From: a phage
Assembly: GCA_012646845.1 (NCBI GenBank)
Contig: GCA_012646845.1_4707.2
Direction: 5' to 3' (one strand)
Length of the DNA stretch: 44,786 bases
Shown here: piece by piece, positions 10,042-32,023 of the stretch
Position numbering within the stretch: position 1 is the stretch's first letter
Layout: each line of letters opens with the position of its first letter
Notes under the pieces: generated by a model
What the model was told of the DNA's origin: nothing
Databases searched by the model: none
The model's input: only the letters and a program-made list of their open reading frames with translations
Translations under genes and position numbers: made by a program

Positions 10042-11696
10042 GCGAACAAGAAAAAGAAGTCGTGACGAATCAGGAAGCCATTGAGCCTTCAGAGTCGTCC
10101 GTTGAAACAATGATTCCAGCAAGTGAGGGTAAAGACGAAGCTGTCACTACCGAAGGAGATGTAGCGGCTCCAGAAGCAACCCGTGAAGAAGAACCATCGC
10201 ATCCACCGCTGGTCGATTTCTCGAAGGCGACGATACGTTTCCAATGCGAAGACATTCGTCCTAAGAGTCCGAAGAAAACAAAACGTCAGCCGTTGGTGTT
10301 ACCGCTGTATTCTCCGCGTGTACAGACAGCGTATTACAAGGAATACATCAACGAAGCAATGGATACCGTGCAAGCCATTGTCGCTCAACGCGGTAAACCT
10401 TCGGACGAGCAATTTGATAAATTCAGTAAAGCGGTAGTGCAATCGGTTGCTGATGGGCAATACCAACCGCGTGGGCCAGCTCATGATCGTGCGTTGGAAC
10501 GTAAGGGTAGTCAGTGGACTAACGTACCCGTAGACTCATCGGGTGTTGGTCGTGTTATTCCTGGCATCCCACAACCGAACCATATTCCTGATGATGTCGA
10601 AGCGCCGTTGACAGGAACCGATGCGATCTATTTTGCTATCCGCAATACGAAATCGGGCGCACCTGCGGTAATGCCGTTATGGCATAGCGGTATTAAGCTG
10701 CAGTTCAATCCACCGTCAAATGAACGTGTTGCGATTATGCATGAACGTATCGCACGTGATAAAATCCTGGGTGGACGTGATAGTACCGGTTTCCTGTTTT
10801 CGGCAACCTCGATTATCACCATGAAGCATGCTATCGAATTAGCGTTAGAATGCTGTTACATGGCCAACGTACCGAACCTGGATATCCAGCGTTTGAAAGA
10901 CATTATTCCGGTTACCGATGTTCCAGCGTTATTGTTGAACGTGCTGGTAACCATGTACCCGTACGGCTATCCTTACGTACAGACCTGCTATCAGAATCCA
11001 GAAACCTGCGACTATCGTGTTGAAGATACCGTAAGCTTTGCGAAGCTCTATCAAGTTGACAACAGCGCAATTACCAAACGTATGCGACAGATCATGACCG
11101 AAGGTCCGGTCATGACAGATGAACTTTTGCGTGAGTATGCAAACGAGCTGGGCGAAACAAACTCCCGTACGCTGGATCTGTCTGACAACGGTTCGGTTAT
11201 CATTGAGCTTGAAGTACCGAAGATTTCACGTCAGATTGCCATGGGTGAACGCTGGTTAAGTGATACCCTGGAAGATCTGCGTGATATTCTATCGCGTCCG
11301 TCAATGACCGAAGAAGAGCGTGATCGTGTTATTCGTGAGCGTCAGTTCTATAGCTGGATGCGTCAATATGATGCGTGGATCAAATCGATGCATGTGTCGG
11401 TAAACGGCACCATGCGTCGTGTAAGCGATGCAGATACGGCAACGGTATTAGCACAGCTGTCTCGTGATAGCGACCTTCGTGAACGCTATATCGATGGGTT
11501 GATGCAGTTCATCGGTGATTCGACGATTGCGCTCGCAGCGATGCCTGCCTGGAAATGTCCGAAATGTAATACCGATATTGCTGACAATCTGCGTGACCAG
11601 AAATACTACGATCTGATTGCTTTGGATGTACCCCAGCTTTTTTTTACCCTAAACTCCGTCCAATCTCTTCAGGAGGGGATGGACGCGGTATTCTAA
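10038..11696 (+). CDS. hypothetical protein (552 aa), acidic low-complexity N-terminus
   Basis: ORF track; translationally coupled to upstream gene; T8 run 17 codons before stop. Confidence 0.75.
   Translation: MSEQEKEVVTNQEAIEPSESSVETMIPASEGKDEAVTTEGDVAAPEATREEEPSHPPLVDFSKATIRFQCEDIRPKSPKKTKRQPLVLPLYSPRVQTAYYKEYINEAMDTVQAIVAQRGKPSDEQFDKFSKAVVQSVADGQYQPRGPAHDRALERKGSQWTNVPVDSSGVGRVIPGIPQPNHIPDDVEAPLTGTDAIYFAIRNTKSGAPAVMPLWHSGIKLQFNPPSNERVAIMHERIARDKILGGRDSTGFLFSATSIITMKHAIELALECCYMANVPNLDIQRLKDIIPVTDVPALLLNVLVTMYPYGYPYVQTCYQNPETCDYRVEDTVSFAKLYQVDNSAITKRMRQIMTEGPVMTDELLREYANELGETNSRTLDLSDNGSVIIELEVPKISRQIAMGERWLSDTLEDLRDILSRPSMTEEERDRVIRERQFYSWMRQYDAWIKSMHVSVNGTMRRVSDADTATVLAQLSRDSDLRERYIDGLMQFIGDSTIALAAMPAWKCPKCNTDIADNLRDQKYYDLIALDVPQLFFTLNSVQSLQEGMDAVF
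11639..11645 (+). other. T TTT TTT slippery heptamer (candidate -1 frameshift site)
   Basis: Heptamer is in X_XXY_YYZ register in the 0 frame of 10038..11696; the -1 frame is open from 11597 through 12118. Confidence 0.3.
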
Positions 11697-12639: not shown

Positions 12640-12687
12640 GCATAACCCTCCTCCTGGCCTGAACCAGGAGGAAGGGTGTTTTTATGC
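12640..12687. terminator. Bidirectional terminator hairpin between convergent genes
   Basis: GCATAA-CCCTCCTCCTGG-CCTGAA-CCAGGAGGAAGGGTG-TTTTTATGC; perfect extended inverted repeat. Confidence 0.65.
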
Positions 12688-14196
12688 CGCGAAGGTTGGC
12701 TTGTTGCTGGCTTCCCAGGCGGTAGCACCGGTGTCGAAATCGGCATGTTCTGTTACGTTGGAGACGTTCCAACCGGAGATATCCTGGTTGAACGCCTTTG
12801 CGTCCTCAAACATGCTCCGCATCGAAACAATATTAGACATGTTCCAGCTACCGATGTTCTGGTTGAACACAACAGCACTACGGAACATGCGATCGGCATT
12901 CGTTACGTTCGACATATCCCAACCGATGACGTTAGGATCGTTGAACTTCGAACAGCCTAAGAACATCGAGTTGGTGCTGGTGACAGCAGTAGGCAGCTCT
13001 GCCGGGACCGACGTCAGGTTGCTAGCACGTTCGAATGACCAGTTACGGACATCATTCTGTTTCCCGAAGCTCAGAACCGCGAGCAGCGCGTTACCGCCGA
13101 GGTTGATTTTCAGGGATTTAAGTCCGCTCTCTTTCCAACCAATCTCGATGCGACCGGCTTGCGTAACGTCGATGCCCGTATTCGCACCTTCGACAACGTC
13201 TACCTTCACATTGTCGTACGAGAGACGATACCAGAGTTCTGGGTCGACGCCGCCGGTAAGAGGAATATCACCATCGCCCAATGGCACGTCAAACGTGTCG
13301 GAGATAACAGAAAGATCCAGCGCACCCGGCTGCACGGTAGCGGTGAAGTAGGTGAAGTCCTCTGGCTCGGTCACGACCTCATGGTAGCGAAGATACACAT
13401 CGCCAGCCCAAGATTCCGTTTCGGCGTAATCCGTGCTAAGATGCACTGCCTTGTATCCGTCATCAAGGTCGTGCACGGCGATTACATACGCATATTCGAG
13501 CAACGTCGCGAACTCAGTGCGGGTGGTTTCATCGTACCCACCCGCTGAGACCAGACGGTCGATAATGTCGTTACGTAACGCATCATCGATAGCGGCACCG
13601 ATTTCCATCGTCGCCACGTTGTGCTTCGCGACGATCTCATCCCAATCTAACGACAGCGACAGCAGACTCAATGAGGCAAGAGAGTCGCTGTTGTGTAAAT
13701 AGTTGAGTGTATAAAGGTCGGTTTTAGCGATGATGGTCACCAGGTCCAACGTATCGTTGGCGACGGTGAACTTGAGTTTACCTGCCCATACGTAGGAGGC
13801 ATCCGCTGCGTTAAGTTCGAGTTCCTTAACGCCGCTGTCTTCAAAGGTCACTGCGGTTTGCAGATCGGCTTCCAAGAAGTCAACGGTTTTGTCTAACGAC
13901 ACCCCATACCGTGCAGCTAACTGATCGACCACAGCGCCGATGGTGGTATCTGCGTTAACGATGAAGCGCAGAGGAAGACCCAGGAAGTTCTTGGTAAGAT
14001 CTCGGCGAACATAGACCAGGGTTTGTTCGTTGAAGTAGGGGCTACCCTCTAACGGTTTGATGCGGACACTCACCGCATCTGTAGCGTCGTCCTTAGCGAC
14101 AAACTCAAACGTCACGTCCTGTTCGGTCAGCGTAAGCTGGTTCTTACTGTTAACCAGTTCCAGCAACTCATCTTTCCAGTGTTGTAATAACTTCAT
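12682..14196 (-). CDS. putative receptor-binding/tail fibre protein with C-terminal DUF285 (BspA-like) repeats
   Basis: C-terminal repeats GWDMSNVTNADRMF / FNQNIGSWNMSNIVSMRSMF / FNQDISGWNVSNVT; N-terminal domain shared with 15364..17976 and 23321..23848. Confidence 0.75.
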   Translation of the reverse strand: MKLLQHWKDELLELVNSKNQLTLTEQDVTFEFVAKDDATDAVSVRIKPLEGSPYFNEQTLVYVRRDLTKNFLGLPLRFIVNADTTIGAVVDQLAARYGVSLDKTVDFLEADLQTAVTFEDSGVKELELNAADASYVWAGKLKFTVANDTLDLVTIIAKTDLYTLNYLHNSDSLASLSLLSLSLDWDEIVAKHNVATMEIGAAIDDALRNDIIDRLVSAGGYDETTRTEFATLLEYAYVIAVHDLDDGYKAVHLSTDYAETESWAGDVYLRYHEVVTEPEDFTYFTATVQPGALDLSVISDTFDVPLGDGDIPLTGGVDPELWYRLSYDNVKVDVVEGANTGIDVTQAGRIEIGWKESGLKSLKINLGGNALLAVLSFGKQNDVRNWSFERASNLTSVPAELPTAVTSTNSMFLGCSKFNDPNVIGWDMSNVTNADRMFRSAVVFNQNIGSWNMSNIVSMRSMFEDAKAFNQDISGWNVSNVTEHADFDTGATAWEASNKPTFAA

Positions 14197-14772: not shown

Positions 14773-15342
14773 TCAACGATTCTTCATCACTTTACCCAGG
14801 CTTTCGATATTATCCCAAAAGCGATTTTTACTTGGCGCATCGCCGACGATAACCGACATCAAATCACGACGCTCGCGACTGATGATACCCTGCGATTTCC
14901 AGATCACCATCGTCCAGCAAGCAGCCAGAACGAACAGATGGTTAATACTCGGTTTGGTTTGTGCGATGAACGCAAGCCATGCCCAGATACCGGTATATAC
15001 TACCGTCACTAAAAAGAGAGAGATTGTTGCAACGACAACAACGAAGTTTTGGATGGCTGGCTGATTGGCGTTATCCTGAAAAGCGGTAAGATCAGGAAGA
15101 TTACCTTCAACGGAACTCGTATCATCGATTTCCAATTCTTCGATTTCTTTTCGTATGTCGGGAGCTAATCCGGCATCATCAAGATGCTTTTTTAACCGCT
15201 GTATACTTAATCGTTGACCGACAGGGATATTAATGTTGTCGTAACTATTAAGCACATCAACCAGGGAGCGTCCGTCAACGAGAACCAGGCTCGCGGTACC
15301 CATCGTTTGCGGTTTTATTTTGTAAAGATCTTTTACTTTCAT
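14773..15342 (-). CDS. hypothetical membrane protein (189 aa)
   Basis: Hydrophobic segments VVVATISLFLVTVVYTGIWAWLAFIA and LFVLAACWTMVIW. Confidence 0.65.
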   Translation of the reverse strand: MKVKDLYKIKPQTMGTASLVLVDGRSLVDVLNSYDNINIPVGQRLSIQRLKKHLDDAGLAPDIRKEIEELEIDDTSSVEGNLPDLTAFQDNANQPAIQNFVVVVATISLFLVTVVYTGIWAWLAFIAQTKPSINHLFVLAACWTMVIWKSQGIISRERRDLMSVIVGDAPSKNRFWDNIESLGKVMKNR

Positions 15343-18746: not shown

Positions 18747-19412
18747 TTAAATTGATGTTAGATACTGCTTACCTCCGACAAACGATGTCAACCAGTTCCC
18801 ACTGACAAGCTGTGATACCCAGCCAGGCACTGCCCTGCCATTCTGGCTCATCACATTACCAGCCCATCCCGGAAAACCAGGTCGGAAAATATATACTTGA
18901 ATATGTGTTAAAGCGTTATCATTACCTCCACCAACAGCAACATTACGACGTCCGGATGATGGGAAATATTCTTTTAAGAACAGGGGATCGTTTGCCAATA
19001 AAGAAGCAGGCCAAGGATTAGCGGATGCGTCAACATCGAATTCGGTCCATCGCCATTTGCGTCCGGTATCGAACCAGGTTGACGTACCGCCACCACGCAC
19101 CGCAAGATTGCGTGCATCACGGGCACTGTATATTGATTCGATGTTTCGCCACCCACCTTTTGCGGCGTTTGCCGCATAGCAAACCGCATTACCACCATTC
19201 TTCTTTTCGTAAACGGTTCGTTTGATATGAACACGGTCGATAAACGCTTCACCGTATTTGTTGACAAGTGTTTGCGCAATATCACGAAGATCGTGCATAT
19301 GAAAGGCGATGTCTTCGTTGTGGAACCACGTTGTCGGGTTCCAAACGGTGCCGTTTGGTTCGGCACACATCGATCTGATATTGTTGCGCTGATTAATCGC
19401 GATAAAGCCCAT
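18747..19412 (-). CDS. hypothetical tail-associated protein, paralog 2
   Basis: Start moved to ATG at 19412 (GAGGTG RBS; track start at 19475 lies inside an upstream hairpin); N-terminal DLRDIAQTLVNKY aligns with DVRDIATRVQNNY of paralog 1. Confidence 0.7.
   Translation of the reverse strand: MGFIAINQRNNIRSMCAEPNGTVWNPTTWFHNEDIAFHMHDLRDIAQTLVNKYGEAFIDRVHIKRTVYEKKNGGNAVCYAANAAKGGWRNIESIYSARDARNLAVRGGGTSTWFDTGRKWRWTEFDVDASANPWPASLLANDPLFLKEYFPSSGRRNVAVGGGNDNALTHIQVYIFRPGFPGWAGNVMSQNGRAVPGWVSQLVSGNWLTSFVGGKQYLTSI
18792..18860. repeat. 69-nt near-identical direct repeat, copy 2
   Basis: Matches 18035-18103 with a single mismatch. Confidence 0.85.
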
Positions 19413-19527
19413 GGCCCACCTCGTTTCTATTCTCGAAGGAAATTTCATACGATGACGCCATAACAGCTCCCCCATCCCCCCAACCCGTAAGGGAAGGGAG
19501 GATGTAAGGGAAGGAGGAGCTATTTAA

Positions 19528-20031
19528 TTACTGGCTGACAACCTCAACGGAACTGGGATCGGCGATCAGCGCACGGTCGGTAGAACAATTGAAGAAGACC
19601 ATCCCAACACCATCGCCGTTCGAGTTCAGGGTTGAACTTACGTAAGACAATGTTGGTTTATTCATACGGTAGAAGCGTTCGCTGGTGGTGGTATTGAACC
19701 CCAGATCAACGTAGTCTTTCACCGTGGTGTACAGCTGTGTGGACTCGAAAACGGTTACCGGAGAGTCAACGGTAAACTGACTGCCTTCATCCACAACCAG
19801 AACTTTATCGTTCCAGATTTCAGTGGTTGAGAACTTCGGTTTCCAATGTTCGAATTCCTGGGTTGCGCCCCAGCAAGAATACACAGCGAGATTGCTGTTC
19901 TTCTCGACAGGTTTTAACCCCACCAGTTGTGTCAGGCCTTTATCCAGGTTCGGTAAGCCTTCCAGCGTAGCACACCCACCCAGAGAAAGTACCATCAACA
20001 TACCGAGAATAATCGCGCAAAGTTTCTTCAT
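19528..20031 (-). CDS. lipoprotein (167 aa)
   Basis: Signal peptide with lipobox MKKLCAIILGMLMVLSLGGC. Confidence 0.75.
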   Translation of the reverse strand: MKKLCAIILGMLMVLSLGGCATLEGLPNLDKGLTQLVGLKPVEKNSNLAVYSCWGATQEFEHWKPKFSTTEIWNDKVLVVDEGSQFTVDSPVTVFESTQLYTTVKDYVDLGFNTTTSERFYRMNKPTLSYVSSTLNSNGDGVGMVFFNCSTDRALIADPSSVEVVSQ

Positions 20032-20075: not shown

Positions 20076-20660
20076 TTACACAGCTGTAGGAAGTTCAGGC
20101 CAATCGATATTTGGTGCTGTTGATGTGTCAACGCGGTGCAGAGCCACCCGATACTTTTTCCATGCTGTCAGCATCGACACCTCTTCTTCCGTTGCGATCT
20201 CCAGATCCACAGCATCCTGAAGTGGCGCAATACGATCATTCGCTGCCTGCATCAGACTGTTTTTTGTTTCTTCCGCCTCCCGGACATGGGATTGTTTTTC
20301 CGCATCTGTATCTTTCACCCAGGTTGTTCCGTCCCACTTCTGAAACTCTCCTTCCGGGGATAACCAAGTAGTATTTTCTGGTAACGGACCGAGTTCAGAA
20401 ATAAATAACGCGTCGCCGGAAGCCACATCATAGACGGTTTTACCCCGATGGTCTTCAACAATATACCACGATTCATTTTCACTGTTAAAAACTGCCACAA
20501 AGTCAGCAGGAATTTCCGGTGGGGCGATATCTGTAGAATTAGCTGGTAGTCCCGTATGCGGTGGAATATATGCGTCGCCTTCACCAATAAACTCATTGGT
20601 TCCGGCCAGCAGATTATAAATTTTTATGGTTTGTGGTTCATCACTCATTCTGAATGCCAT
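20076..20660 (-). CDS. tail fibre assembly protein (chaperone)
   Basis: Start overlaps fibre stop (TAATG); sequence resembles Tfa/gpG-type chaperones; position immediately downstream of fibre gene. Confidence 0.8.
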
Positions 20661-23871: not shown

Positions 23872-24462
23872 TCAGATTAAATATAAACTTCTTAAACGTG
23901 GAACACGATTCGAGATAAACGTAAACGGCCTTAACGACCGCATAAAATTCCGCGCATACCCTCTATCCCGACAAAGCGAGGGGGGTTTATCCATCGGAAA
24001 ATCCGTAGGAGACCGATAGGTGTTTTCCTGTTGATACGTAAACAAGAAATCGATCCAATGACTGATGTAAGTGAATAGCTTCTCAGGGATAGCTAAACCG
24101 CGATCATGCAGTCCTGCATAAAGCCTCACCGCTGAAAAGAAAGCCCTCGGCTGATAACCAGACCATGCTGTCTGATCGCCGAAGTGGTACATCGTAAAAT
24201 CATTAACTTTCGATCCGCTTGGCGCATCCCAACGATCCCACACGTACGCACTCGCACCCGACCCTAAAACCCCGAATTTCTGATAATACCACTGCTGTGA
24301 GTCATACCAGAAATTCACAACATTCCGAATCATGAGGTCACGTCGTTCAGCCGGTACGTCCATATCCAGGAAGACCCATGGATGTTGGTAGCCAGGATAA
24401 GGCTGACCACGCCAACTGTCGAACGTCAACGCTTCCTCTTGCCATGATGCTTCAGGATACAT
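23872..24462 (-). CDS. hypothetical protein, Trp/Tyr-rich (196 aa)
   Basis: ORF track; first gene after strong terminator. Confidence 0.6.
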   Translation of the reverse strand: MYPEASWQEEALTFDSWRGQPYPGYQHPWVFLDMDVPAERRDLMIRNVVNFWYDSQQWYYQKFGVLGSGASAYVWDRWDAPSGSKVNDFTMYHFGDQTAWSGYQPRAFFSAVRLYAGLHDRGLAIPEKLFTYISHWIDFLFTYQQENTYRSPTDFPMDKPPSLCRDRGYARNFMRSLRPFTFISNRVPRLRSLYLI

Positions 24463-24518
24463 GCTGACCTCATAGATGATCGTTGATAGGAAAGAAACCT
24501 AATTCATACCATGGGAAC

Positions 24519-24577
24519 CTCAAAAAAAAAAACAAAAAATAGGAAAACGATGCTCATCCTTTTAGGGATGAGCATCG
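24519..24577 (-). terminator. rho-independent terminator (minus strand)
   Basis: Perfect 12-bp stem CGATGCTCATCC/GGATGAGCATCG (24548-24577), followed on minus strand by TTTTCCTATTTTTTGTTTTTTTTTTTG. Confidence 0.8.
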
Positions 24578-24597
24578 CGTACCGTTATATCGAATGA

Positions 24598-25176
24598 TTA
24601 ATAAGGAATCAGATCGTTAAGCTTTTCTTCTTCAATGACAAAGAAGTTGTTCTGGTCGTCTAAATCTGTTAGCAGGACTTGTCCGACAGTAAAGCACGTG
24701 CCACCCTTCTTAGGCATCCATACCGGCTCATTCGTTACCTTATCGGGATACCATTTGAAACGATTGGTATCCAAGAAGAACGCAGCTTTGTTCGCTTTAT
24801 CCGTTGATCGGTAGCTTACTAACGCTGGCCATTCGATCCAGGTATTTGTGCATGGCACATGTAAAGGATACCATGCACGCCAACGTTTGCCCGGCTTGTT
24901 AGGATCAACCCAATACTCGGCAGTCAATACAGCATCTTTATAATGTTTCTGTATTAACATTTCGAGCACAAGCTCATTGCCTTTTGATGAATCTAAAGTC
25001 ACTTCAGCCATATAAAGAGATTTAGGTAATCCAGACTGTTTTGTGGGTAGCGTTACGACACCGGTAACCAACGGTCTGCTCGGCTTACGCTTCCGTTCTT
25101 TCCGATGTGTGTAAAGGAATAGCCCGATAGCTGCGGCAACAAGTATAATAAACAACACTACCTTAATCCAATTCAT
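24598..25176 (-). CDS. hypothetical membrane-anchored protein (192 aa)
   Basis: N-terminal TM segment WIKVVLFIILVAAAIGLFLY followed by basic stretch. Confidence 0.65.
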   Translation of the reverse strand: MNWIKVVLFIILVAAAIGLFLYTHRKERKRKPSRPLVTGVVTLPTKQSGLPKSLYMAEVTLDSSKGNELVLEMLIQKHYKDAVLTAEYWVDPNKPGKRWRAWYPLHVPCTNTWIEWPALVSYRSTDKANKAAFFLDTNRFKWYPDKVTNEPVWMPKKGGTCFTVGQVLLTDLDDQNNFFVIEEEKLNDLIPY

Positions 25177-25922
25177 TCGTCAATATCTCCTTCTACAAAC
25201 AGAGTCAATTTGATTTCAGGGTCATAGAACATAGTAATCACATCATCTTGCTCTACTGAACGTTGTGCTGTCCATAATAACTGTTCATCCCGAATATCAA
25301 ATTTATGCCGCTCATCACTCACCACGGCTTCCGCATCAACGTAATGGTAAACATCGCCGAGAGGATTCTCAATCCAACCGCGTACCATCAAACGTTCTTT
25401 TTGTTTACGTGTAAAGAAGCGATAAGGATCTTCACACGTGCGCCATACATCCCCGTTCCCACCGACCAGCTCATCATAAACTTTAGAGAGTTCGTCAGGT
25501 ACCGGAATCAAAATGTTATCTTGATAGTTCGACCAGAAACGACATACATCTTGGATCAGCTCATCGTCCTGCAGTTTGATTGCCGCGTCATTATGATCGA
25601 TTTTAACAGCATCGATATCATGATGGGTAAACGGAAGAGCGTCTAGGTTTGCCACCACGATCTCGATGCCATCGTGGTGAACACGAACCCACCCGTCAAA
25701 CCATCGGTACCCGTCAGCTTGATATAACGTTGTATGATATCTGACAACATTGATGTCTTCGAACGAGTCCAATAAAGCTTTAGCTGCTAGAAGCGGCGAA
25801 AAGTTCTTTGATTGTCCCGGCTTACGTATTTCTTCTTTGATGAACAATTTACCAAGAATCGGATGTTCGATAACAAAACCACAGGAAAGCATGATGCTTC
25901 CTTGATAGCGTGCTTCTTGCAT
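25173..25922 (-). CDS. hypothetical protein (249 aa)
   Basis: ORF track; stop overlaps downstream start. Confidence 0.65.
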   Translation of the reverse strand: MQEARYQGSIMLSCGFVIEHPILGKLFIKEEIRKPGQSKNFSPLLAAKALLDSFEDINVVRYHTTLYQADGYRWFDGWVRVHHDGIEIVVANLDALPFTHHDIDAVKIDHNDAAIKLQDDELIQDVCRFWSNYQDNILIPVPDELSKVYDELVGGNGDVWRTCEDPYRFFTRKQKERLMVRGWIENPLGDVYHYVDAEAVVSDERHKFDIRDEQLLWTAQRSVEQDDVITMFYDPEIKLTLFVEGDIDE

Positions 25923-25999
25923 TTTCTATTCCTCAAACAAAAGATTGTCTTTTACACGACATGCTTACAAGTACACAGGTTACTGAATTTCTGTAAGAG

Positions 26000-26530
26000 T
26001 TAATTCTTGTTCTTTACGAACTCTACCGCTTCCAGAATAGCAGCGTTTAATCGTTGACCGCGTTCCTCCATTGTCCCGCCATCGCGATGTCTGAAATTAA
26101 CCGAGTGGATATCCCAAGCCCAGTAATGTGTCTCCGGCGTGTCATCTTCTTTGGTGGGATCGCTCAATCTGTTAACCCCAATTCGCCAAATATAATCAGC
26201 GGGTTGGCGTCGTAAGCATTCACCTATAGCGTCTATATAAGACAACCCTTCGGTCGTTACGGCGACGATAACGTGCGGGTGCTTACGAACAACCTTTGTG
26301 CTTGTTTTCCCATCAACGACCACTTTACGGGTTACATTATCATGTCCTTCGCATGACCACATCGGTGCAATACCAGGCGCATCTAACAACGCCTGGCATG
26401 CGGGTAATATTCCAGGTTCAATGACTCCTTCCTTGATAGCCATCCGTGCACGTTCTTTGAATATCGCTAATTGTTCTTCACTGACAACAAAAGAAAACAT
26501 AATTACTCCTTTCTGGTTCTTCCCCTCCAC
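26000..26530 (-). CDS. hypothetical protein (176 aa)
   Basis: ORF track. Confidence 0.6.
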   Translation of the reverse strand: MEGKNQKGVIMFSFVVSEEQLAIFKERARMAIKEGVIEPGILPACQALLDAPGIAPMWSCEGHDNVTRKVVVDGKTSTKVVRKHPHVIVAVTTEGLSYIDAIGECLRRQPADYIWRIGVNRLSDPTKEDDTPETHYWAWDIHSVNFRHRDGGTMEERGQRLNAAILEAVEFVKNKN

Positions 26531-26572
26531 AGCCTCAGGAAGAGAAGAACCGTTTGCTAAGTTGCTGGGTAA

Positions 26573-26821
26573 TTAAAATGCATTGATTGGACTGTTCAAT
26601 GCTTTATCACGGATTTGAATCGCCGCCAGCATCGCTTTCTGGTACGAATCGTAAGCATCAACAGAAACCGTCAGATCAACCAATTTCTCTAATACGGATT
26701 CAGCCGCTTTTACGCGGACGCGGAACTTGGTGATTGCGTTATCTTTGTTACGATAAACCGTGATGTGGTGCAGCGGTTGAACTTTGGTTTTAACGGATTT
26801 AGTTGCTTTGATCGCTTTCAT
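26573..26821 (-). CDS. hypothetical basic protein (82 aa)
   Basis: ORF track. Confidence 0.55.
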   Translation of the reverse strand: MKAIKATKSVKTKVQPLHHITVYRNKDNAITKFRVRVKAAESVLEKLVDLTVSVDAYDSYQKAMLAAIQIRDKALNSPINAF

Positions 26822-26868
26822 GATGATTTCCTTCTTTATTAGGATGATTACATTTAGTCAGTTTAACG

Positions 26869-26910
26869 GCATAAACCCTCCCCGCGTATGGCAGGAAGGG
26901 TGTATGGATT
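26869..26910 (-). terminator. GCATAAA-flanked GC-rich hairpin (family member)
   Basis: GCATAAACCCTCCCC ... GGAAGGG after stop of 26915..27412. Confidence 0.4.
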
Positions 26911-26914
26911 TGTT

Positions 26915-27412
26915 TTACGCGTGTCGTCGTTTACCAAAGAAAATATGATTGTCTACCACGGTGATATTGGTAGCGTTTTTTCTGAAATGTTTAGGGCGAA
27001 GATGTTTCGCGTTAAAGAATACGGCTCCTCGTGTTGGATCGGCTTTACGGTAAGCAACAATGTCGTTATTGCGCAATGTTGCGACCTCTCGTGCTATCGC
27101 TCTTGCACGATTGAATGCAGCATGATCGCGTATAACAATTCGTTGTTGTCTTGCCCAGGGGAATTGACCTCTTTGCAGTACGACGTCTCTGACGTTCGTA
27201 GGGAATCGGTAGTCCATAGATCGATTATGTATTAAAAACGCCACGGAGTATTGCCCTTTTACAGATTCGCCTCTGGCTTCCATATACACAGCGCATGCGA
27301 CGATCTCTTTCCGGCAATCGATTCTAGGCCCTGCGTTCACCGATGCTTGACTGAACGGTGCGATAAGCAACATAACAAGCCCTAAAACCAACGTGTGTAA
27401 AATACCTTGCAT
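26915..27412 (-). CDS. SleB-like cell-wall hydrolase with N-terminal export signal (candidate endolysin)
   Basis: Hydrophobic N-terminus ILHTLVLGLVMLLIAPFSQA; motifs AVYMEARGE and LIHNR resemble SleB/CwlJ hydrolase family. Confidence 0.55.
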   Translation of the reverse strand: MQGILHTLVLGLVMLLIAPFSQASVNAGPRIDCRKEIVACAVYMEARGESVKGQYSVAFLIHNRSMDYRFPTNVRDVVLQRGQFPWARQQRIVIRDHAAFNRARAIAREVATLRNNDIVAYRKADPTRGAVFFNAKHLRPKHFRKNATNITVVDNHIFFGKRRHA

Positions 27413-27665
27413 CTTAATAACCTCACGATAAGGTGCTGTCCACTGGCGTCTTGATAACGCATCCCGTCTATCGGGTTGTTCTATTCAGCGGGCAGCAGGT
27501 TAGCGTCAGATGTTTGCCCGACATCCACGACAGAAATAAACGGTACTGAAAATGCGGTCTCCTCTGGTTTGGCAATAAACATAACGTTGGATAACAGAAC
27601 CCATTTCCCGCATCCAACGCGGTAAAGGTGTACATCGTTTGAATTCATATAGTTTCTCAAAGATG

Positions 27666-27968
27666 TTAACCTCTACCGTCGAGCCACAAGTTGTATTTCT
27701 CACGAGCGTCGGGATCACGATAGATGCAACGGTACCTTAACTCCGGTAATAATCCGGTTCGCACTAACTCATCCGTTAACTTTCTACGACGTTCTACGCC
27801 GTTATGGATACGACGTAACTCACGAAAATTAAGCGGTGTTTGTTTCAATAGAACCCCCATTACGATCGGGCGATGATCAATTTCATACAGCGATAATACA
27901 CCACGTATTTCATCTAATACCTGCTCGCGATCGATTAGTATTCGATCATGATATTTTAATTGTTCCAT
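27666..27968 (-). CDS. hypothetical protein (100 aa)
   Basis: ORF track. Confidence 0.5.
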   Translation of the reverse strand: MEQLKYHDRILIDREQVLDEIRGVLSLYEIDHRPIVMGVLLKQTPLNFRELRRIHNGVERRRKLTDELVRTGLLPELRYRCIYRDPDAREKYNLWLDGRG

Positions 27969-27994
27969 AACAGCCGCTCTCGTTTCAGGGGGAG

Positions 27995-28237
27995 TTAAGT
28001 ATTGTGATTATTCCTACCTACATTCCTCAACAGTGTAACGATAACGAATACCGCCACCATCAAGAAGACGAACCATAACCCGACATTAATTCGGGCAGCA
28101 GGTTCATCGACCATGAAGAACATCATCCCACAAAACCCAATGACCATCCATGCTAGAACCATCCCCGTTAATCCCCGTAGTAGCATATGTCCCATCATGA
28201 ACTCCTTCTTACTTTTTCTGATAAAGCGATGATTCAA
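27995..28237 (-). CDS. small two-TM membrane protein (holin-like)
   Basis: Two hydrophobic helices (GMVLAWMVIGFCGMMFFMV; VGLWFVFLMVAVFVIVTLL). Confidence 0.5.
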   Translation of the reverse strand: MNHRFIRKSKKEFMMGHMLLRGLTGMVLAWMVIGFCGMMFFMVDEPAARINVGLWFVFLMVAVFVIVTLLRNVGRNNHNT

Positions 28238-28379
28238 ATTTTAGAAACATCACTAACGCGAATGCGAGTAACAACGCACGTACCCACATACCTCCTTGAT
28301 AGCTGTTGTACAACATAAAGACCAGAGCGATGCCGCCCATATGCAGGCGGCACTTATCGAACAGTGTTGGTTTATACAT
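28211..28379 (-). CDS. small membrane protein (56 aa, below ORF-track cutoff)
   Basis: Hand-translated MYKPTLFDKCRLHMGGIALVFMLYNSYQGGMWVRALLLAFALVMFLKFESSLYQKK. Confidence 0.3.
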
Positions 28380-28599
28380 AGGAGATTAAACGTTGAATGA
28401 TTTTTACTTTGCCTTTACCTGGACCTTTCTTGCGGCGATTCAACAGACGGATACTGTTTCCAGTTACGGTGTCGCCATCATAATCAGCCTGGAACTGTGA
28501 TAAAAAAGCAGGTTGTATCCGGTTGACACCAAGATTGTTGTGGAAAGGATTGAGACTTAAAAGAGGGTTAGCTGGAATCATCGTATTGTCCTTACTCAA
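28372..28599 (-). CDS. hypothetical protein (75 aa)
   Basis: ORF track. Confidence 0.4.
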   Translation of the reverse strand: MSKDNTMIPANPLLSLNPFHNNLGVNRIQPAFLSQFQADYDGDTVTGNSIRLLNRRKKGPGKGKVKIIQRLISYV

Positions 28600-28950
28600 T
28601 TATTTACCCAGATAGAGGTATTCACCACCCTGAATAGCACCGGTTGTTGGGTCAACCAGTATGCGAACCCGCGCATAGGTCTTGAAAGAGGGATTGAAAA
28701 CTTCGAAGTCTGCCACTTTCAATTTCACGTTGGGATTGATAGGGTTCTTAACACCAGGAAGTTCTTTCGGTAATCCGAAGTCGACACCGCATTCTTCAAG
28801 GTCTGCTGGCGTCATGCTTTCCATGGCCATGTAAATTGCTTTTGCTTTATCGTAAACCTCTGGGCTATCCAGCAATCCAGCCTGCGCTGAACCGACAACA
28901 CTACCGAACAGAATAGCAACAGCAACAAACAATTTAGTTAACGTTTTCAT
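28600..28950 (-). CDS. secreted protein (116 aa)
   Basis: Signal peptide MKTLTKLFVAVAILFGSVVGSAQA. Confidence 0.65.
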   Translation of the reverse strand: MKTLTKLFVAVAILFGSVVGSAQAGLLDSPEVYDKAKAIYMAMESMTPADLEECGVDFGLPKELPGVKNPINPNVKLKVADFEVFNPSFKTYARVRILVDPTTGAIQGGEYLYLGK

Positions 28951-28986
28951 GATATTTTCCTCGAAAGTAAAATGTTACAATACCTA

Positions 28987-29409
28987 TTAACGTACGGCTG
29001 CTACGCTGTTAGCGCATGCCTGAATATCATCGGTATTTACGATGATGGTTTCGTTAAACGCACGAATGCGTGCACGACGGGCTTCTTTAAGACTGGCGAT
29101 TGCGTTAGCAGCTTGATCCGTATTCGCAAGGCTAATAACCGGGATCAAACGCATGTCCGGACTGCAGATATTCAATGCTTGGTATACACGGCCGTTGATT
29201 CCTACGGTATCAGACATCGGATAGTGCGCACGACATTGAAATTGACCCATGACAACAAGCGAGCGATCGGAGATACCAATCTGATAACGACCGTCTTCGC
29301 TGTAGGCGTAGCAGTTATTCCCACGAGCCATCCAGTTAGCTTGTGCTTGTGCACTAACAAAAGCCAGGGTAGCAACGATAGCGAGTACGATATTTTTGAA
29401 CAGTTTCAT
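28987..29409 (-). CDS. secreted protein (140 aa)
   Basis: Start at ATG 29409 (AAGGA RBS); signal peptide MKLFKNIVLAIVATLAFVSAQAQA. Confidence 0.65.
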   Translation of the reverse strand: MKLFKNIVLAIVATLAFVSAQAQANWMARGNNCYAYSEDGRYQIGISDRSLVVMGQFQCRAHYPMSDTVGINGRVYQALNICSPDMRLIPVISLANTDQAANAIASLKEARRARIRAFNETIIVNTDDIQACANSVAAVR

Positions 29410-29437
29410 GATAAAGATCCTTATTGAAATAAAATCG

Positions 29438-29466
29438 GTATAAAGCCCCCCATTTAGGGGGACCTG
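29438..29466 (-). terminator. GGTATAAA-flanked short GC hairpin (family member)
   Basis: GCCCCCC-ATTTA-GGGGG after stop of 29468..29785. Confidence 0.35.
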
Positions 29467-29467
29467 A

Positions 29468-29785
29468 TTAGTTTGCACTTAAGAAATGGCCCAGAACCGT
29501 TACGATTGGAAACAGTCCCGTAACCGTATTATCGCCAGAAAACATCATCTTTGAGTCGTTAACCGTAATGAAACGGATGTCGGTTGCAGACCCATCGATA
29601 GCGACAAAACGCATCGAGTTTGGTGGAAGATCCTCAACAACTTCCACGAGGTGTTCACGATTTTCAAAGGCTTCTTTAACACGACGCATGAAACGAATCA
29701 ATGTTCCTTCAGCGTCGGCTTCCAAATGACCTAAGATATCGCGATTATTACGAATAGCGAATACAGCCATTTTAAACATACACAT
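29468..29785 (-). CDS. hypothetical protein (105 aa)
   Basis: ORF track; same conserved leader as 5403..5828. Confidence 0.6.
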   Translation of the reverse strand: MCMFKMAVFAIRNNRDILGHLEADAEGTLIRFMRRVKEAFENREHLVEVVEDLPPNSMRFVAIDGSATDIRFITVNDSKMMFSGDNTVTGLFPIVTVLGHFLSAN

Positions 29786-29889
29786 CTTGACATCCTCTTA
29801 TATTGGATTGATTGCTAATAATTCAAGGTGAAGTCAATGACTCCATTGCTTCACCTAGGTAATATAGCCGTGAAAATTAATGCATTGAC
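29786..29889 (-). promoter_or_regulatory. Conserved promoter/leader module, copy 2
   Basis: Minus strand reads TTTTCACGGCTATATTACCTAG - hairpin (GGTGAAG..CTTCACC) - CAATCCAATATAAGAGGATGTCAAG-ATG. Confidence 0.45.
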
Positions 29890-30846
29890 TCACGTCTTTG
29901 CTACATGGGGCTGAATCTCGTCGATGCGTTTAACCACAACCTCAGGGAAAAGTTGGAGGATTTCGTCAGGTGGTGTCGTACCTTCTGTCCAACGATAACG
30001 TTCAACCTTTTCGATGCGTGGACTCCCTCCGACGTCAGCGATACGAAAGATACAGGCGATGCCTAAATCGAAACATACGCTGTAAATATCTTCCGTACCT
30101 CCTTTATCGGCAAGTATTTTCGCAAAATGCTCGTTATCAGGAAGAATGGCTAAATTACGGATACACCAAACATTATCACCCATTTCTTCAAGTTTTGGGT
30201 AGGTTAAAGTGTGCCCGTAGCATGTTAACCATCGATGATTTTCTAGGCGGAAGTCCTTATCTCCTGGCCGATAACCCAGTATCACCTCGGTGTAGAAAAG
30301 ATTGGGCATATCGAGCAGTTCTTGCACTGTCGGGCCGGTATGCTCCCAGAGACAGATTTGTTTACGGTCTATATCGTAATCTGTGACGTTACTCACCTCC
30401 CAACTTATCGTAAGTTCATCGACAACGTGCCAACCTAAAGCATGTTCACCACCAAGCAGATTAACAATAGCTGCTATCTCGTGCTTGTCAAATACCCCCA
30501 AATTCTGCGGTGGTTGCATCGTACGTAATGGCTCCCATAACGCACTGTAATCATAGAGCAAATGACGACACAGACTTTTTGTTAAGGGGGTATGTTCAGT
30601 AAACAGTGGAAGAATCACCGTATCCAGCAACGGACGTAATGGATGATTGTCGGGTGGCAACGAAGCGTATAACCGACTTTCCTTTTTAGGAATGTCGTAA
30701 CCAAACCCGTAACGCTCCGAAATGAGTGCAATCAGCACTTTTGCTACGCGGTTACGTAGCATGCGATGGATATCATCACTGTAACTGAATTTCGGTTTAT
30801 TACCGCAAACGAAGGTGAAGTATCTGGGCGTTAGCGCAGCCATCAT
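29890..30846 (-). CDS. hypothetical protein (318 aa)
   Basis: ORF track. Confidence 0.7.
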   Translation of the reverse strand: MMAALTPRYFTFVCGNKPKFSYSDDIHRMLRNRVAKVLIALISERYGFGYDIPKKESRLYASLPPDNHPLRPLLDTVILPLFTEHTPLTKSLCRHLLYDYSALWEPLRTMQPPQNLGVFDKHEIAAIVNLLGGEHALGWHVVDELTISWEVSNVTDYDIDRKQICLWEHTGPTVQELLDMPNLFYTEVILGYRPGDKDFRLENHRWLTCYGHTLTYPKLEEMGDNVWCIRNLAILPDNEHFAKILADKGGTEDIYSVCFDLGIACIFRIADVGGSPRIEKVERYRWTEGTTPPDEILQLFPEVVVKRIDEIQPHVAKT

Positions 30847-30853
30847 CTTTCCC

Positions 30854-31300
30854 TCAATCTAAATAGTACGTGATGGAAAGGTCTTTTCCATCGAACACGA
30901 TATCCGCGCAGTCATGGATCGTCGGTAATACCATTTTGGCGGCTACTGGAACGTACGCCTGCAACTCCATGAAGTTATCCATACGGAATGCACGACGCAC
31001 CATCAGCGGCGTTAGTGTAAACGTTACGCTGACGTTACCACCTGAGGTCAAGTGCATTATCGCATGCCCATGATCGCACCAACAATGGTTTTCGAGCCAT
31101 CCGGTGTAAATCAGAATATTTTTCTCTTCGTCGTAATAAGCAATGCCGGTCTGCTTTAAACGGCTGGTAAACCGAGAGGCTTGCTCGTAGCCCGCACGCA
31201 ACATTCGAGCAACCAAACGGGTATTGTTAGCGATTCGATTCTGTTCGTTGGTTTTTGTGGTTTTGAAAAGTTCGATACGTTCTGCTTTTGTAATTTGCAT
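30854..31300 (-). CDS. hypothetical protein (148 aa)
   Basis: ORF track. Confidence 0.65.
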   Translation of the reverse strand: MQITKAERIELFKTTKTNEQNRIANNTRLVARMLRAGYEQASRFTSRLKQTGIAYYDEEKNILIYTGWLENHCWCDHGHAIMHLTSGGNVSVTFTLTPLMVRRAFRMDNFMELQAYVPVAAKMVLPTIHDCADIVFDGKDLSITYYLD

Positions 31301-31379
31301 GGTTACTGTCCTTTTGAAATATGTTTAGATAAGGAGGATTTACCGGATATTAAAAAGTTATTTGGTGTATGTAATGTTT

Positions 31380-31979
31380 TTACTTGGGTTCCAGTGTTGG
31401 TCCGAACAACCAGAATGTCAGACGCCGGTAAACCTGTTCGATGACTGCGGCTTCTGTTTGCTCTTCTAGTGCTTTCCCTTTCTTATGTTGTATTTCTGGC
31501 GGTATGTCGTCGTTGTAAACGTACCCTGCTGAGAAGTCCCACATCAACCGTTTACCGAAAGTAGGTAAAAACACCTCTTCGAATCGGAACGCTTTCGAAT
31601 TCCAATGAAGCAGCTGATCGGATTCAACATGTAAAGCTTTATTACGTTTGCTTGGCATGTTTCCGAAGTACTGAACGATAGCTGATTTCATAACCCGATC
31701 TGCGAAGTCTTTGGCTTCGGCCTCATCGAGGGGAGGCAGACGATGCGACAGATTCAGCTTGCGTTGTTCAACATCGATCTTACGCATCGCTTTAATCAAA
31801 TCACCCGGAACGATTTTACCCTTATGGCCTTCCTGTCGGTGTATGAAACACCCCTGGAATAATACGCAAAGTTCTTGAGGTGCGGTACTTTCCATTCGTC
31901 CGTAAGCAACGATCACCGATCGACGACGATCGATAACTTCGCGGATAAACCGCGGCTCAGTAATACTCACCACTGTCAT
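31380..31979 (-). CDS. hypothetical protein (199 aa)
   Basis: ORF track. Confidence 0.65.
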   Translation of the reverse strand: MTVVSITEPRFIREVIDRRRSVIVAYGRMESTAPQELCVLFQGCFIHRQEGHKGKIVPGDLIKAMRKIDVEQRKLNLSHRLPPLDEAEAKDFADRVMKSAIVQYFGNMPSKRNKALHVESDQLLHWNSKAFRFEEVFLPTFGKRLMWDFSAGYVYNDDIPPEIQHKKGKALEEQTEAAVIEQVYRRLTFWLFGPTLEPK

Positions 31980-32023
31980 TTAAAGCCCTCTTTATCTTTT
32001 TCCATTTCTCTTTACACAACCAC

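Follow-up and report, generated by a model that had tools for sequence, protein, structure and literature searches.

Does a cluster in which a SleB-like hydrolase gene lies close to two small membrane-protein genes form the lysis cassette of a phage, or does the hydrolase act apart from its neighbours? This question is raised by positions 26,915 to 28,379 of a 44,786-nucleotide (nt) phage contig, GCA_012646845.1_4707.2 (NCBI GenBank assembly GCA_012646845.1), the whole of which is hereafter called the window. An earlier note on this DNA had listed three open reading frames (ORFs) there as a candidate lysis cluster, and all three are indeed present, on the minus strand. Our analysis leans, somewhat better than evenly, towards the view that the hydrolase gene (gene A) encodes a second, accessory muralytic enzyme, which would be exported by the Sec system independently of any holin. 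Over positions 24000-32000, the window shares 92% identity with Escherichia phage vB_EcoM_Goslar, which infects E. coli, has a genome of 237 kb, and belongs to the nucleus-forming jumbo phages; identity is 90-95% over the full length of the window, which is collinear with Goslar 81.7-129.9 kb, a few indels excepted. Over positions 24000-32000, an IMG/VR genome of 237.5 kb is nearer to the window than Goslar is. This collinearity marks the window as DNA of a Goslar-like, nucleus-forming jumbo phage that infects enterobacteria. For comparison, about 12 more Goslar-like contigs were drawn from public assemblies, and the ratio of nonsynonymous to synonymous polymorphism (pN/pS) was computed against Goslar for genes A, C, F, and G of the window. 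The hydrolase gene and its predicted signal, in which a slash marks the cut, are as follows.

26915..27412, minus strand: gene A, SleB-fold (Hydrolase_2) peptidoglycan hydrolase of 165 amino acids (aa), homolog of Goslar gp098
27412..27344, minus strand: predicted signal peptide of gene A, residues 1-23, cut at SQA/S

Gene A is the same gene as Goslar gp098 (YP_009820783 / QBO63891), which also encodes 165 aa, shares 91% amino-acid identity with it, and agrees with it in neighbours and upstream leader. The hydrolase annotation itself is not new, as gp098 is already labelled 'putative cell wall hydrolase' in GenBank and 'endolysin' in RefSeq; no literature on Goslar lysis genes and no experiments on gp098 were found. 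The SleB/CwlJ-like assignment made in the earlier note holds up. The gene A product matches Pfam PF07486 (Hydrolase_2) with an E value of 3e-16 and 60.3 bits (cut-off 27) over model positions 1-100 of 100; a second match is to PHROG 938 'endolysin'. An AlphaFold2 model built from four near-identical sequences had a predicted local distance difference test (pLDDT) score of 46 and was discarded; it was replaced by a model built from 85 diverse homologs retrieved by profile search, with a mean pLDDT of 87.3 and values mostly >90 for residues 31-160. The only significant Foldseek matches of this model in the PDB were the SleB catalytic domains 4FET and 4F55 (probability 1.0, target-normalised template modelling score 0.72-0.74). 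Three residues, Glu45, Arg47, and Arg64, show no variation across the 85 homologs, and Glu45 lies within a YMEARGE motif that aligns in sequence with YgEsRGE of 4F55/4FET. With a pN/pS of 0.25, the gene is under purifying selection. By its modelled fold and its predicted catalytic Glu45 motif, gene A is a member of the SleB/CwlJ family.

The enzyme is nevertheless distinct from the spore protein that gives the family its name. The catalytic domain of Bacillus SleB (4FET, 4F55), a germination-specific lytic transglycosylase, has the fold, the Y-x-E-x-R-G-E motif, and the Hydrolase_2 domain in common with gene A, but identity between the two is only ~22%, and gene A is without the N-terminal PG_binding_1 domain, as a Pfam scan found the Hydrolase_2 domain alone. 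This missing domain, together with a score of 43.5 bits against the NCBIfam equivalog TIGR02869 for spore SleB (cut-off 236.5), rules out that gene A is an ortholog of spore SleB. As the host forms no spore cortex, the enzyme must act on the ordinary murein of Gram-negative bacteria. By analogy with SleB, the gene A product is probably muralytic, with a predicted lytic transglycosylase activity.

The N terminus of the product, MQGILHTLVLGLVMLLIAPFSQA followed by SVNAG, has a Leu/Val-rich h-region (best 12-mer Kyte-Doolittle value 2.88, core TLVLGLVMLLIA) and, by rule-based assessment, a cleavage-type site SQA/S with Pro at -5 and Ser/Ala at -3/-1. Gly, Ala, Ser, Thr, and Cys account for just 20% of the first 20 uncharged residues. 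The Leu/Val core, this low proportion of small residues, and the SQA/S site together indicate a cleavable-type Sec signal and not a signal-anchor-release (SAR) sequence. Between the two types of N terminus that the earlier note had offered, the cleavable one is retained, and a SAR endolysin is ruled out by the strongly hydrophobic core and the signal-peptidase site. These features suggest that the product would be exported by Sec and cleaved. A conserved pair of cysteines (Cys33/Cys40) directly past the signal, in gene A and its nearest relatives, fits a periplasmic location.

An export signal is, as far as N-terminal sequences reveal, a feature of the whole SleB-like family. All seven phage-lineage homologs of gene A begin with a signal, an anchor, or a lipobox, and a search of 1.84 billion proteins found an N-terminal hydrophobic signal in 131 of the 148 closest cluster representatives. 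The type of signal varies by lineage. Cleavable signal peptides are predicted in Goslar, T5-like, and rV5-like phages, and the T5-like homolog (MKAALLLVAALTFSFSSQA followed by S) has an SQA/S site identical to that of gene A. Uncleaved signal anchors are predicted in Pakpunavirus and PA5oct-like phages, and a lipobox, LTLSAC, in Xanthomonas phage LucasX (locus L016, 2740..3366).

The same enzymes occur in other phages away from lysis genes. Like gene A, the T5-like 'SleB putative cell wall hydrolase', CB7_83 and CR3_087 of the rV5/Certrevirus group, Pakpunavirus ORF33, and PA5oct gp368 consist of a single Hydrolase_2 domain behind an N-terminal signal peptide or anchor; they are similar to it in length and share 28-34% amino-acid identity with it. 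The rV5-like gene adjoins rIIA/rIIB, and the T5 homolog lies in the early region; the Pakpunavirus gene sits between ligase and phosphohydrolase genes, and the CB7 homolog among replication genes. The genes of PA5oct-like phages, LucasX, and Sugarland are likewise outside lysis cassettes, and the nearest metagenomic relatives of gene A are found among TerB, Band_7, and Tad2-like genes. For most homologs in other phage groups, the neighbouring genes encode no membrane protein. T5-like and rV5-like phages have, besides the SleB-like gene, a known separate endolysin and holin. Indeed, in T5-like Salmonella phages, the M15 endolysin gene adjoins the holin gene and the SleB-domain ORF is far away (PMC11180984).

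A second candidate endolysin is present in Goslar as well. Outside the region that corresponds to the window, gp024 encodes a GH108+PG_binding_3 protein with no transmembrane domain (TMD) or hydrophobic N terminus, which is a canonical endolysin type; muralytic activity of GH108-PG3 endolysins has been demonstrated (PMC7188820). Both enzymes, SleB-like and GH108, are present in the IMG/VR genome closest to the window. The earlier note had looked to a canonical endolysin/holin pair elsewhere in the genome as evidence against a lysis cluster; the endolysin half of such a pair was found, in Goslar and in the closest relative, with no holin adjoining it. The gp024 gene is downstream of the phiKZ gp139 homolog, roughly at the place of the phiKZ endolysin gp144. 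In small phages, GH108 homologs lie in classical cassettes with TMD proteins and overlapping genes for inner- and outer-membrane spanins (i-spanin and o-spanin). Two genes beside the GH108 gene, Goslar gp027 and gp028, were considered as holin or spanin and set aside, as their products have no TMD and resemble tail-fibre N termini.

Taken together, the route that we favour would run as follows. The host Sec system would export the gene A product, and its signal peptide would be cut after Ala23. The enzyme would then act on the sacculus from the periplasm, with no holin needed for its release, and would probably cleave N-acetylmuramic acid-N-acetylglucosamine bonds via Glu45, as in SleB. The cytoplasmic GH108 muramidase encoded outside the window would be the canonical-type endolysin, and gene A an accessory enzyme. 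Gene A would form its own expression unit behind a highly conserved leader of 253 nt, and genes C and D would belong to a separate upstream operon, G-F-E-D-C-B, encoding two secreted and two membrane proteins. The features upstream of gene A are these.

27413..27665, minus strand: spacer/leader of 253 nt between gene B and the hydrolase gene, with the hydrolase Shine-Dalgarno sequence GTGAGG at its 3' end
27485..27665, minus strand: ultra-conserved element of ~181 nt, first part of the spacer, single-copy and confined to Goslar-like phages
27666..27968, minus strand: gene B, 100-aa soluble basic protein at the Goslar gp099 position, no Pfam, PHROGs, or NCBIfam match
27995..28198, minus strand: gene C, predicted inner-membrane hairpin protein of 66/67 aa (Goslar gp101), two TMDs, no holin-family match
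28209..28379 (stop codon included), minus strand: gene D, 56-aa membrane protein, at 11211..11381 (-) of the Goslar locus L001
28372..28581, minus strand: gene E, 69-aa soluble protein with a basic C terminus (Goslar gp102), same operon, probably coupled to D
28600..28950, minus strand: gene F, 116-aa secreted protein (Goslar gp103), classical signal peptide MKTLTKLFVAVAILFGSVVGSAQA cut before G
28987..29409, minus strand: gene G, 140-aa secreted Cys-containing protein (Goslar gp104), signal peptide MKLFKNIVLAIVATLAFVSAQAQA cut before N

Followed along the transcribed direction, the locus reads G, F, E, D, C, B, spacer, A, and all relatives keep this order. The gaps from G to B are at most 36 nt, or the genes overlap. 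Genes C and D are on the same strand as the hydrolase gene and 583-967 nt upstream of it, with gene B, a hairpin of -17.9 kcal/mol, and the 253-nt spacer between. From this tight G-to-B spacing followed by the hairpin and the spacer, the membrane genes and the hydrolase gene are apparently separate units. Genes G, which opens the envelope-directed run, and F have pN/pS values of 0.06 and 0.11, respectively, and F has no match in Pfam, PHROGs, or NCBIfam. Gene B occurs as two divergent alleles among relatives (~59% versus >90% amino-acid identity). Between the window and Goslar, it shows ~59% amino-acid and ~62% nucleotide identity, with both flanks at >90%, and the recombination boundary lies ~45 nt before the B stop codon. 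Another difference is an indel at window ~27978..28003, between C and B, where Goslar has gp100 (123 aa, multi-TMD with four TMDs; L001 10618..10989). Most relatives have a gene for 119-125 aa at this position; its absence from the window and from loci L009 and L019 indicates that gp100 is dispensable.

The two-TMD protein that the earlier note had placed at 27995..28237 is a real gene with a different start. A GAAGGAG Shine-Dalgarno sequence lies 4-5 nt upstream of an ATG at 28198/28195, and the homologs of gene C, which form 19 clusters, are every one 63-69 aa long; for these two reasons the start was moved from the TTG at 28237, which would give an 80-aa ORF, to the ATG. The protein has a Gly-rich TMD1 at residues ~9-30, an acidic loop (DEPAAR), TMD2 at residues ~39-57, and a short basic C-terminal tail that reads RNVG(R/K)…, and it is predicted to adopt an N-in/C-in topology. 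TMD2 is almost wholly hydrophobic, with polar lumen-lining residues absent. With a pN/pS of 0.14, gene C is, by sequence comparison, a genuine gene under purifying selection in ~14 Goslar-like genomes. A dual-start antiholin arrangement, suggested by Met-Met-Gly-His-Met at the start, was rejected, as relatives begin with MGHM or MIWLK.

The 56-aa membrane ORF also proved to be real, although it is missing from the annotation in both Goslar records. None of the 14 related loci, with nine distinct nucleotide sequences among them, has an interrupted gene D; pN/pS is lower in its own frame (0.25) than in any of the other five, and variable sites are distributed 16/8/26 over the three codon positions, which together mark it as a gene under purifying selection. 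Residues 14-25 and 31-46 form two short hydrophobic stretches, and the tail ends in …LYQKK; Arg34 and the N-terminal half are invariant. The start codon (ATG) shares nucleotides with the stop codon of gene E (ATGTATAA), and D lacks a Shine-Dalgarno sequence of its own, so D is probably translationally coupled to E.

Neither membrane protein resembles a known holin in sequence. For genes C and D, Pfam, PHROGs, and NCBIfam yielded no match to holin models or to any other family. In 50,697 phage records, Goslar was the only phage with either gene, and no homologs of either were found outside Goslar-like phages. A charged C terminus and at least one TMD, a holin criterion that is necessary and very unspecific, are present in both. 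Gene C is a holin candidate by shape alone. The two proteins may be a holin and an antiholin, or may have some other envelope function.

Spanins were sought as well. No lipobox ORF lies in 24-30 kb, and neither the cluster nor its surroundings contain a spanin pair, in agreement with the earlier note, which had found no lipoprotein o-spanin in the cluster. Across the window and the whole Goslar genome, one ORF alone has a convincing lipobox, at 19528..20031 (gp088, minus strand). It encodes 167 aa (MKKLCAIILGMLMVLSLGGC…) and lies between a tail-fibre assembly gene and a soluble ORF, with no i-spanin partner adjoining; on account of this missing partner, a role of gp088 in exclusion or receptor masking may be more fitting than one as o-spanin.

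The lysis cassette of phiKZ, which belongs to the same family as Goslar-like phages (Chimalliviridae), provides a further comparison. Its genes gp141/141.1/142/143/144 bring about holin-endolysin-spanin lysis (Manohar et al. 2026, PMC12894885). In phiKZ, a class III holin with a single TMD sets free a soluble transglycosylase as the endolysin, whereas the gene A product would be exported and is accompanied by no spanin pair. Using tblastn with gp141, gp141.1, gp142, gp143, and gp144 against the window and the Goslar genome, we found no homolog (best E=0.66). Two further window genes encode membrane proteins. At 14773..15342 (minus strand), gp085 (189 aa) has a single central TMD (~101-119) in an architecture that recalls the class III holin gp142, and it is conserved beside the thymidylate kinase gene (tmk) in the chimalliviruses PCH45, PhiEaH1, Moabite, and 2050HW. 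It was rejected as a phiKZ-like holin, as it has no sequence similarity to gp142. At 24598..25176 (minus strand), 1.7 kb downstream of the hydrolase gene, gp094 (192 aa) carries a strongly basic stretch (HRKERKRKPSRP) just after its N-terminal TMD; the protein is predicted to be N-out with a large cytoplasmic domain, and it occurs in Goslar-like phages only.

The spacer in front of the hydrolase gene contains a terminator-like hairpin at ~27620..27584 (-17.9 kcal/mol) followed by a U-rich tail, UUAUGUUUAUUG. Across 11 Goslar-like genomes, mean pairwise divergence in its ~181-nt element is 0.3-1.8%, versus 4-30% in the flanking genes, and the most divergent group, in which protein F is only 65% identical, differs at one of the 181 nt. 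The seven variable sites show no third-position or other codon-position bias in any frame. This near-absence of change, with no codon-position bias, implies that the constraint acts on the nucleic acid, and it is incompatible with the normal synonymous drift expected if either of the 55-aa ORFs placed there by gene callers were coding; that role was rejected. Searches of the spacer returned nothing in Rfam at E<=1 and no tRNA, and RNAfold z-scores were not significant (-1.6 sense, -0.2 antisense). Covariation was not detected in the element, which is almost invariant, nor was a second copy, or similarity to E. coli or other phages. A sigma-70/terminator scan gave sites no commoner than chance, and a search for TATG-type promoter motifs was uninformative. 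The element could be a leader RNA, a small RNA, or a protein-binding site.

Some other features of the window and its relatives lie apart from the cluster. An Rfam match to IS009 (173.8 bits, E=1.5e-41) at 20119..20317 (minus strand) falls inside a Caudo_TAP tail-fibre assembly gene (20076..20660) and probably reflects homology to tfa genes of E. coli cryptic prophages. Two genes on the minus strand are specific to the window in that Goslar has no equivalent at the same places: 12682..14196, encoding a 504-aa DUF7941+DUF285 protein, and 18747..19475, encoding 242 aa with no family match. In relatives, DUF7941/DUF285 genes are found downstream of gp094 instead. Some Goslar-like contigs (239-244 kb; gene C homologs P0004 and P0008) have been deposited as Salmonella enterica assemblies, which suggests that phages of the Goslar genus also occur with Salmonella, as a carrier state or as contamination.

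Whether the hydrolase and the membrane proteins nonetheless work together can be judged against known secreted endolysins. Lys44 of phage fOg44 is a secreted endolysin with a cleaved signal peptide, and phage 21 combines the S21 pinholin with the SAR endolysin R21. Such systems send the endolysin out through Sec without the help of a holin, and their depolarising trigger could be a small membrane protein with two TMDs and an N-in/C-in topology. By this pattern, A would be the principal secreted endolysin of the Lys44 type, building up in the periplasm under restraint by the proton-motive force, C a class II holin or pinholin that would depolarise the membrane at a set time, and D, with or without E, an antiholin or regulator. 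We consider this true lysis cassette unlikely, although it is the strongest of the alternatives. It would account for an exported, predicted muralytic enzyme lying <1 kb from two conserved hairpin membrane proteins, one of them with the N-in/C-in topology and basic C-terminal tail of class II holins, in a phage that has no homolog of phiKZ gp141-144. The GH108 enzyme gp024 likewise has no holin beside it, and Certrevirus offers an analogue: a two-TMD protein overlaps the SleB-like gene and was proposed to be a class II holin, and the rV5-like hydrolase CB7_83, which has a signal peptide, is toxic on expression in E. coli (PMC7344957). What stands in the way is the arrangement itself, since gene B, the terminator-like hairpin, and the 253-nt spacer stand between the membrane genes and the hydrolase gene. 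Unlike R21, gene A is not SAR-like; its membrane-protein genes are not adjacent and belong to no holin family, TMD2 of C is almost purely hydrophobic and without polar lumen residues, the Met-Met start of C is not conserved (MIWLK variants), and no spanin pair accompanies them. Elsewhere in the genome there is a canonical-type GH108 endolysin, and most SleB-like homologs in other phages lack a membrane neighbour and occur in genomes that have a separate holin-endolysin pair. What remains of the proposed lysis cluster is an exported-type hydrolase and two membrane proteins; the functional tie between them is not borne out, given the separate operon, the hairpin, the lack of a holin match, and the homologs outside cassettes.

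Several observations weigh against an accessory role for gene A. Its signal has no Lys or Arg in the n-region before the core, which is atypical. In Certrevirus, the 65-aa two-TMD protein (CB7_82) that overlaps the SleB-like gene indicates that a functional link between hydrolase and hairpin proteins is possible; CB7_82 is non-homologous to C (hhalign probability 0.4%), and Certrevirus is the only group among the compared exported-SleB phages with an adjoining two-TMD protein. The gp024 gene has no adjoining holin and sits among tail-fibre genes, so it could be an accessory or virion enzyme and gene A the main lysin; in Goslar, an annotated holin lies beside neither. Finally, C, D, and gp100 are among only ~10 small membrane proteins in the Goslar genome, and they are the closest to a lysin gene. 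A doubtful proposal would unite these elements: the exported SleB-fold transglycosylase, C, and D might form a spanin-less lysis system of E. coli nucleus-forming phages, non-homologous to that of phiKZ, in which the ~180-nt leader, as a structured RNA or protein-binding element, would set the timing of the hydrolase; or the enzyme might remodel the sacculus for a mid-cell bulge. Improbable, too, is a purely non-lytic envelope role, in which the enzyme would loosen the sacculus, for example during mid-cell bulging round the phage nucleus, or G, F, D, and C would act in superinfection exclusion or receptor masking like T4 Imm and Sp. A preprint describes Goslar-infected cells as bulging at mid-cell as the phage nucleus grows (bioRxiv 10.1101/2021.10.25.465362), homologs of gene A lie in early or accessory regions near rIIA/rIIB, replication, or anti-defence genes, and the cluster, with two secreted and two small membrane proteins in one operon, is Goslar-genus-specific and variable (gp100 present or absent, two B alleles). 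But no homology to Imm, Sp, or exclusion proteins was found in Pfam, PHROGs, or NCBIfam, and a periplasmic transglycosylase under no control should cause lysis, as the toxicity of CB7_83 suggests. That gene A encodes a virion-associated entry lysin, whose N-terminal hydrophobic segment is no export signal, seems very improbable. Jumbo phages do carry virion muralytic domains, and Goslar gp204 is a tail protein with a lysozyme domain; the gene A product, however, is small and single-domain, has the signal-peptide-like N terminus of its whole family, and is encoded outside the structural module, and its PA5oct homolog, gp368, was not detected in virions (PMC7318152).

Among nucleus-forming jumbo phages, phiKZ is the sole case in which lysis has been described, and lysis is unmentioned in a recent review of these phages. 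For Goslar, the list of lysis candidates is now short: the GH108 enzyme, which is soluble, the exported-type SleB-like enzyme, and a few small membrane proteins, of which two, including an unannotated one, are encoded in this window. Beyond Goslar, predicted Sec-exported SleB-like hydrolases recur as stand-alone genes in T5-like, rV5-like, PA5oct-like, and Pakpunavirus phages.

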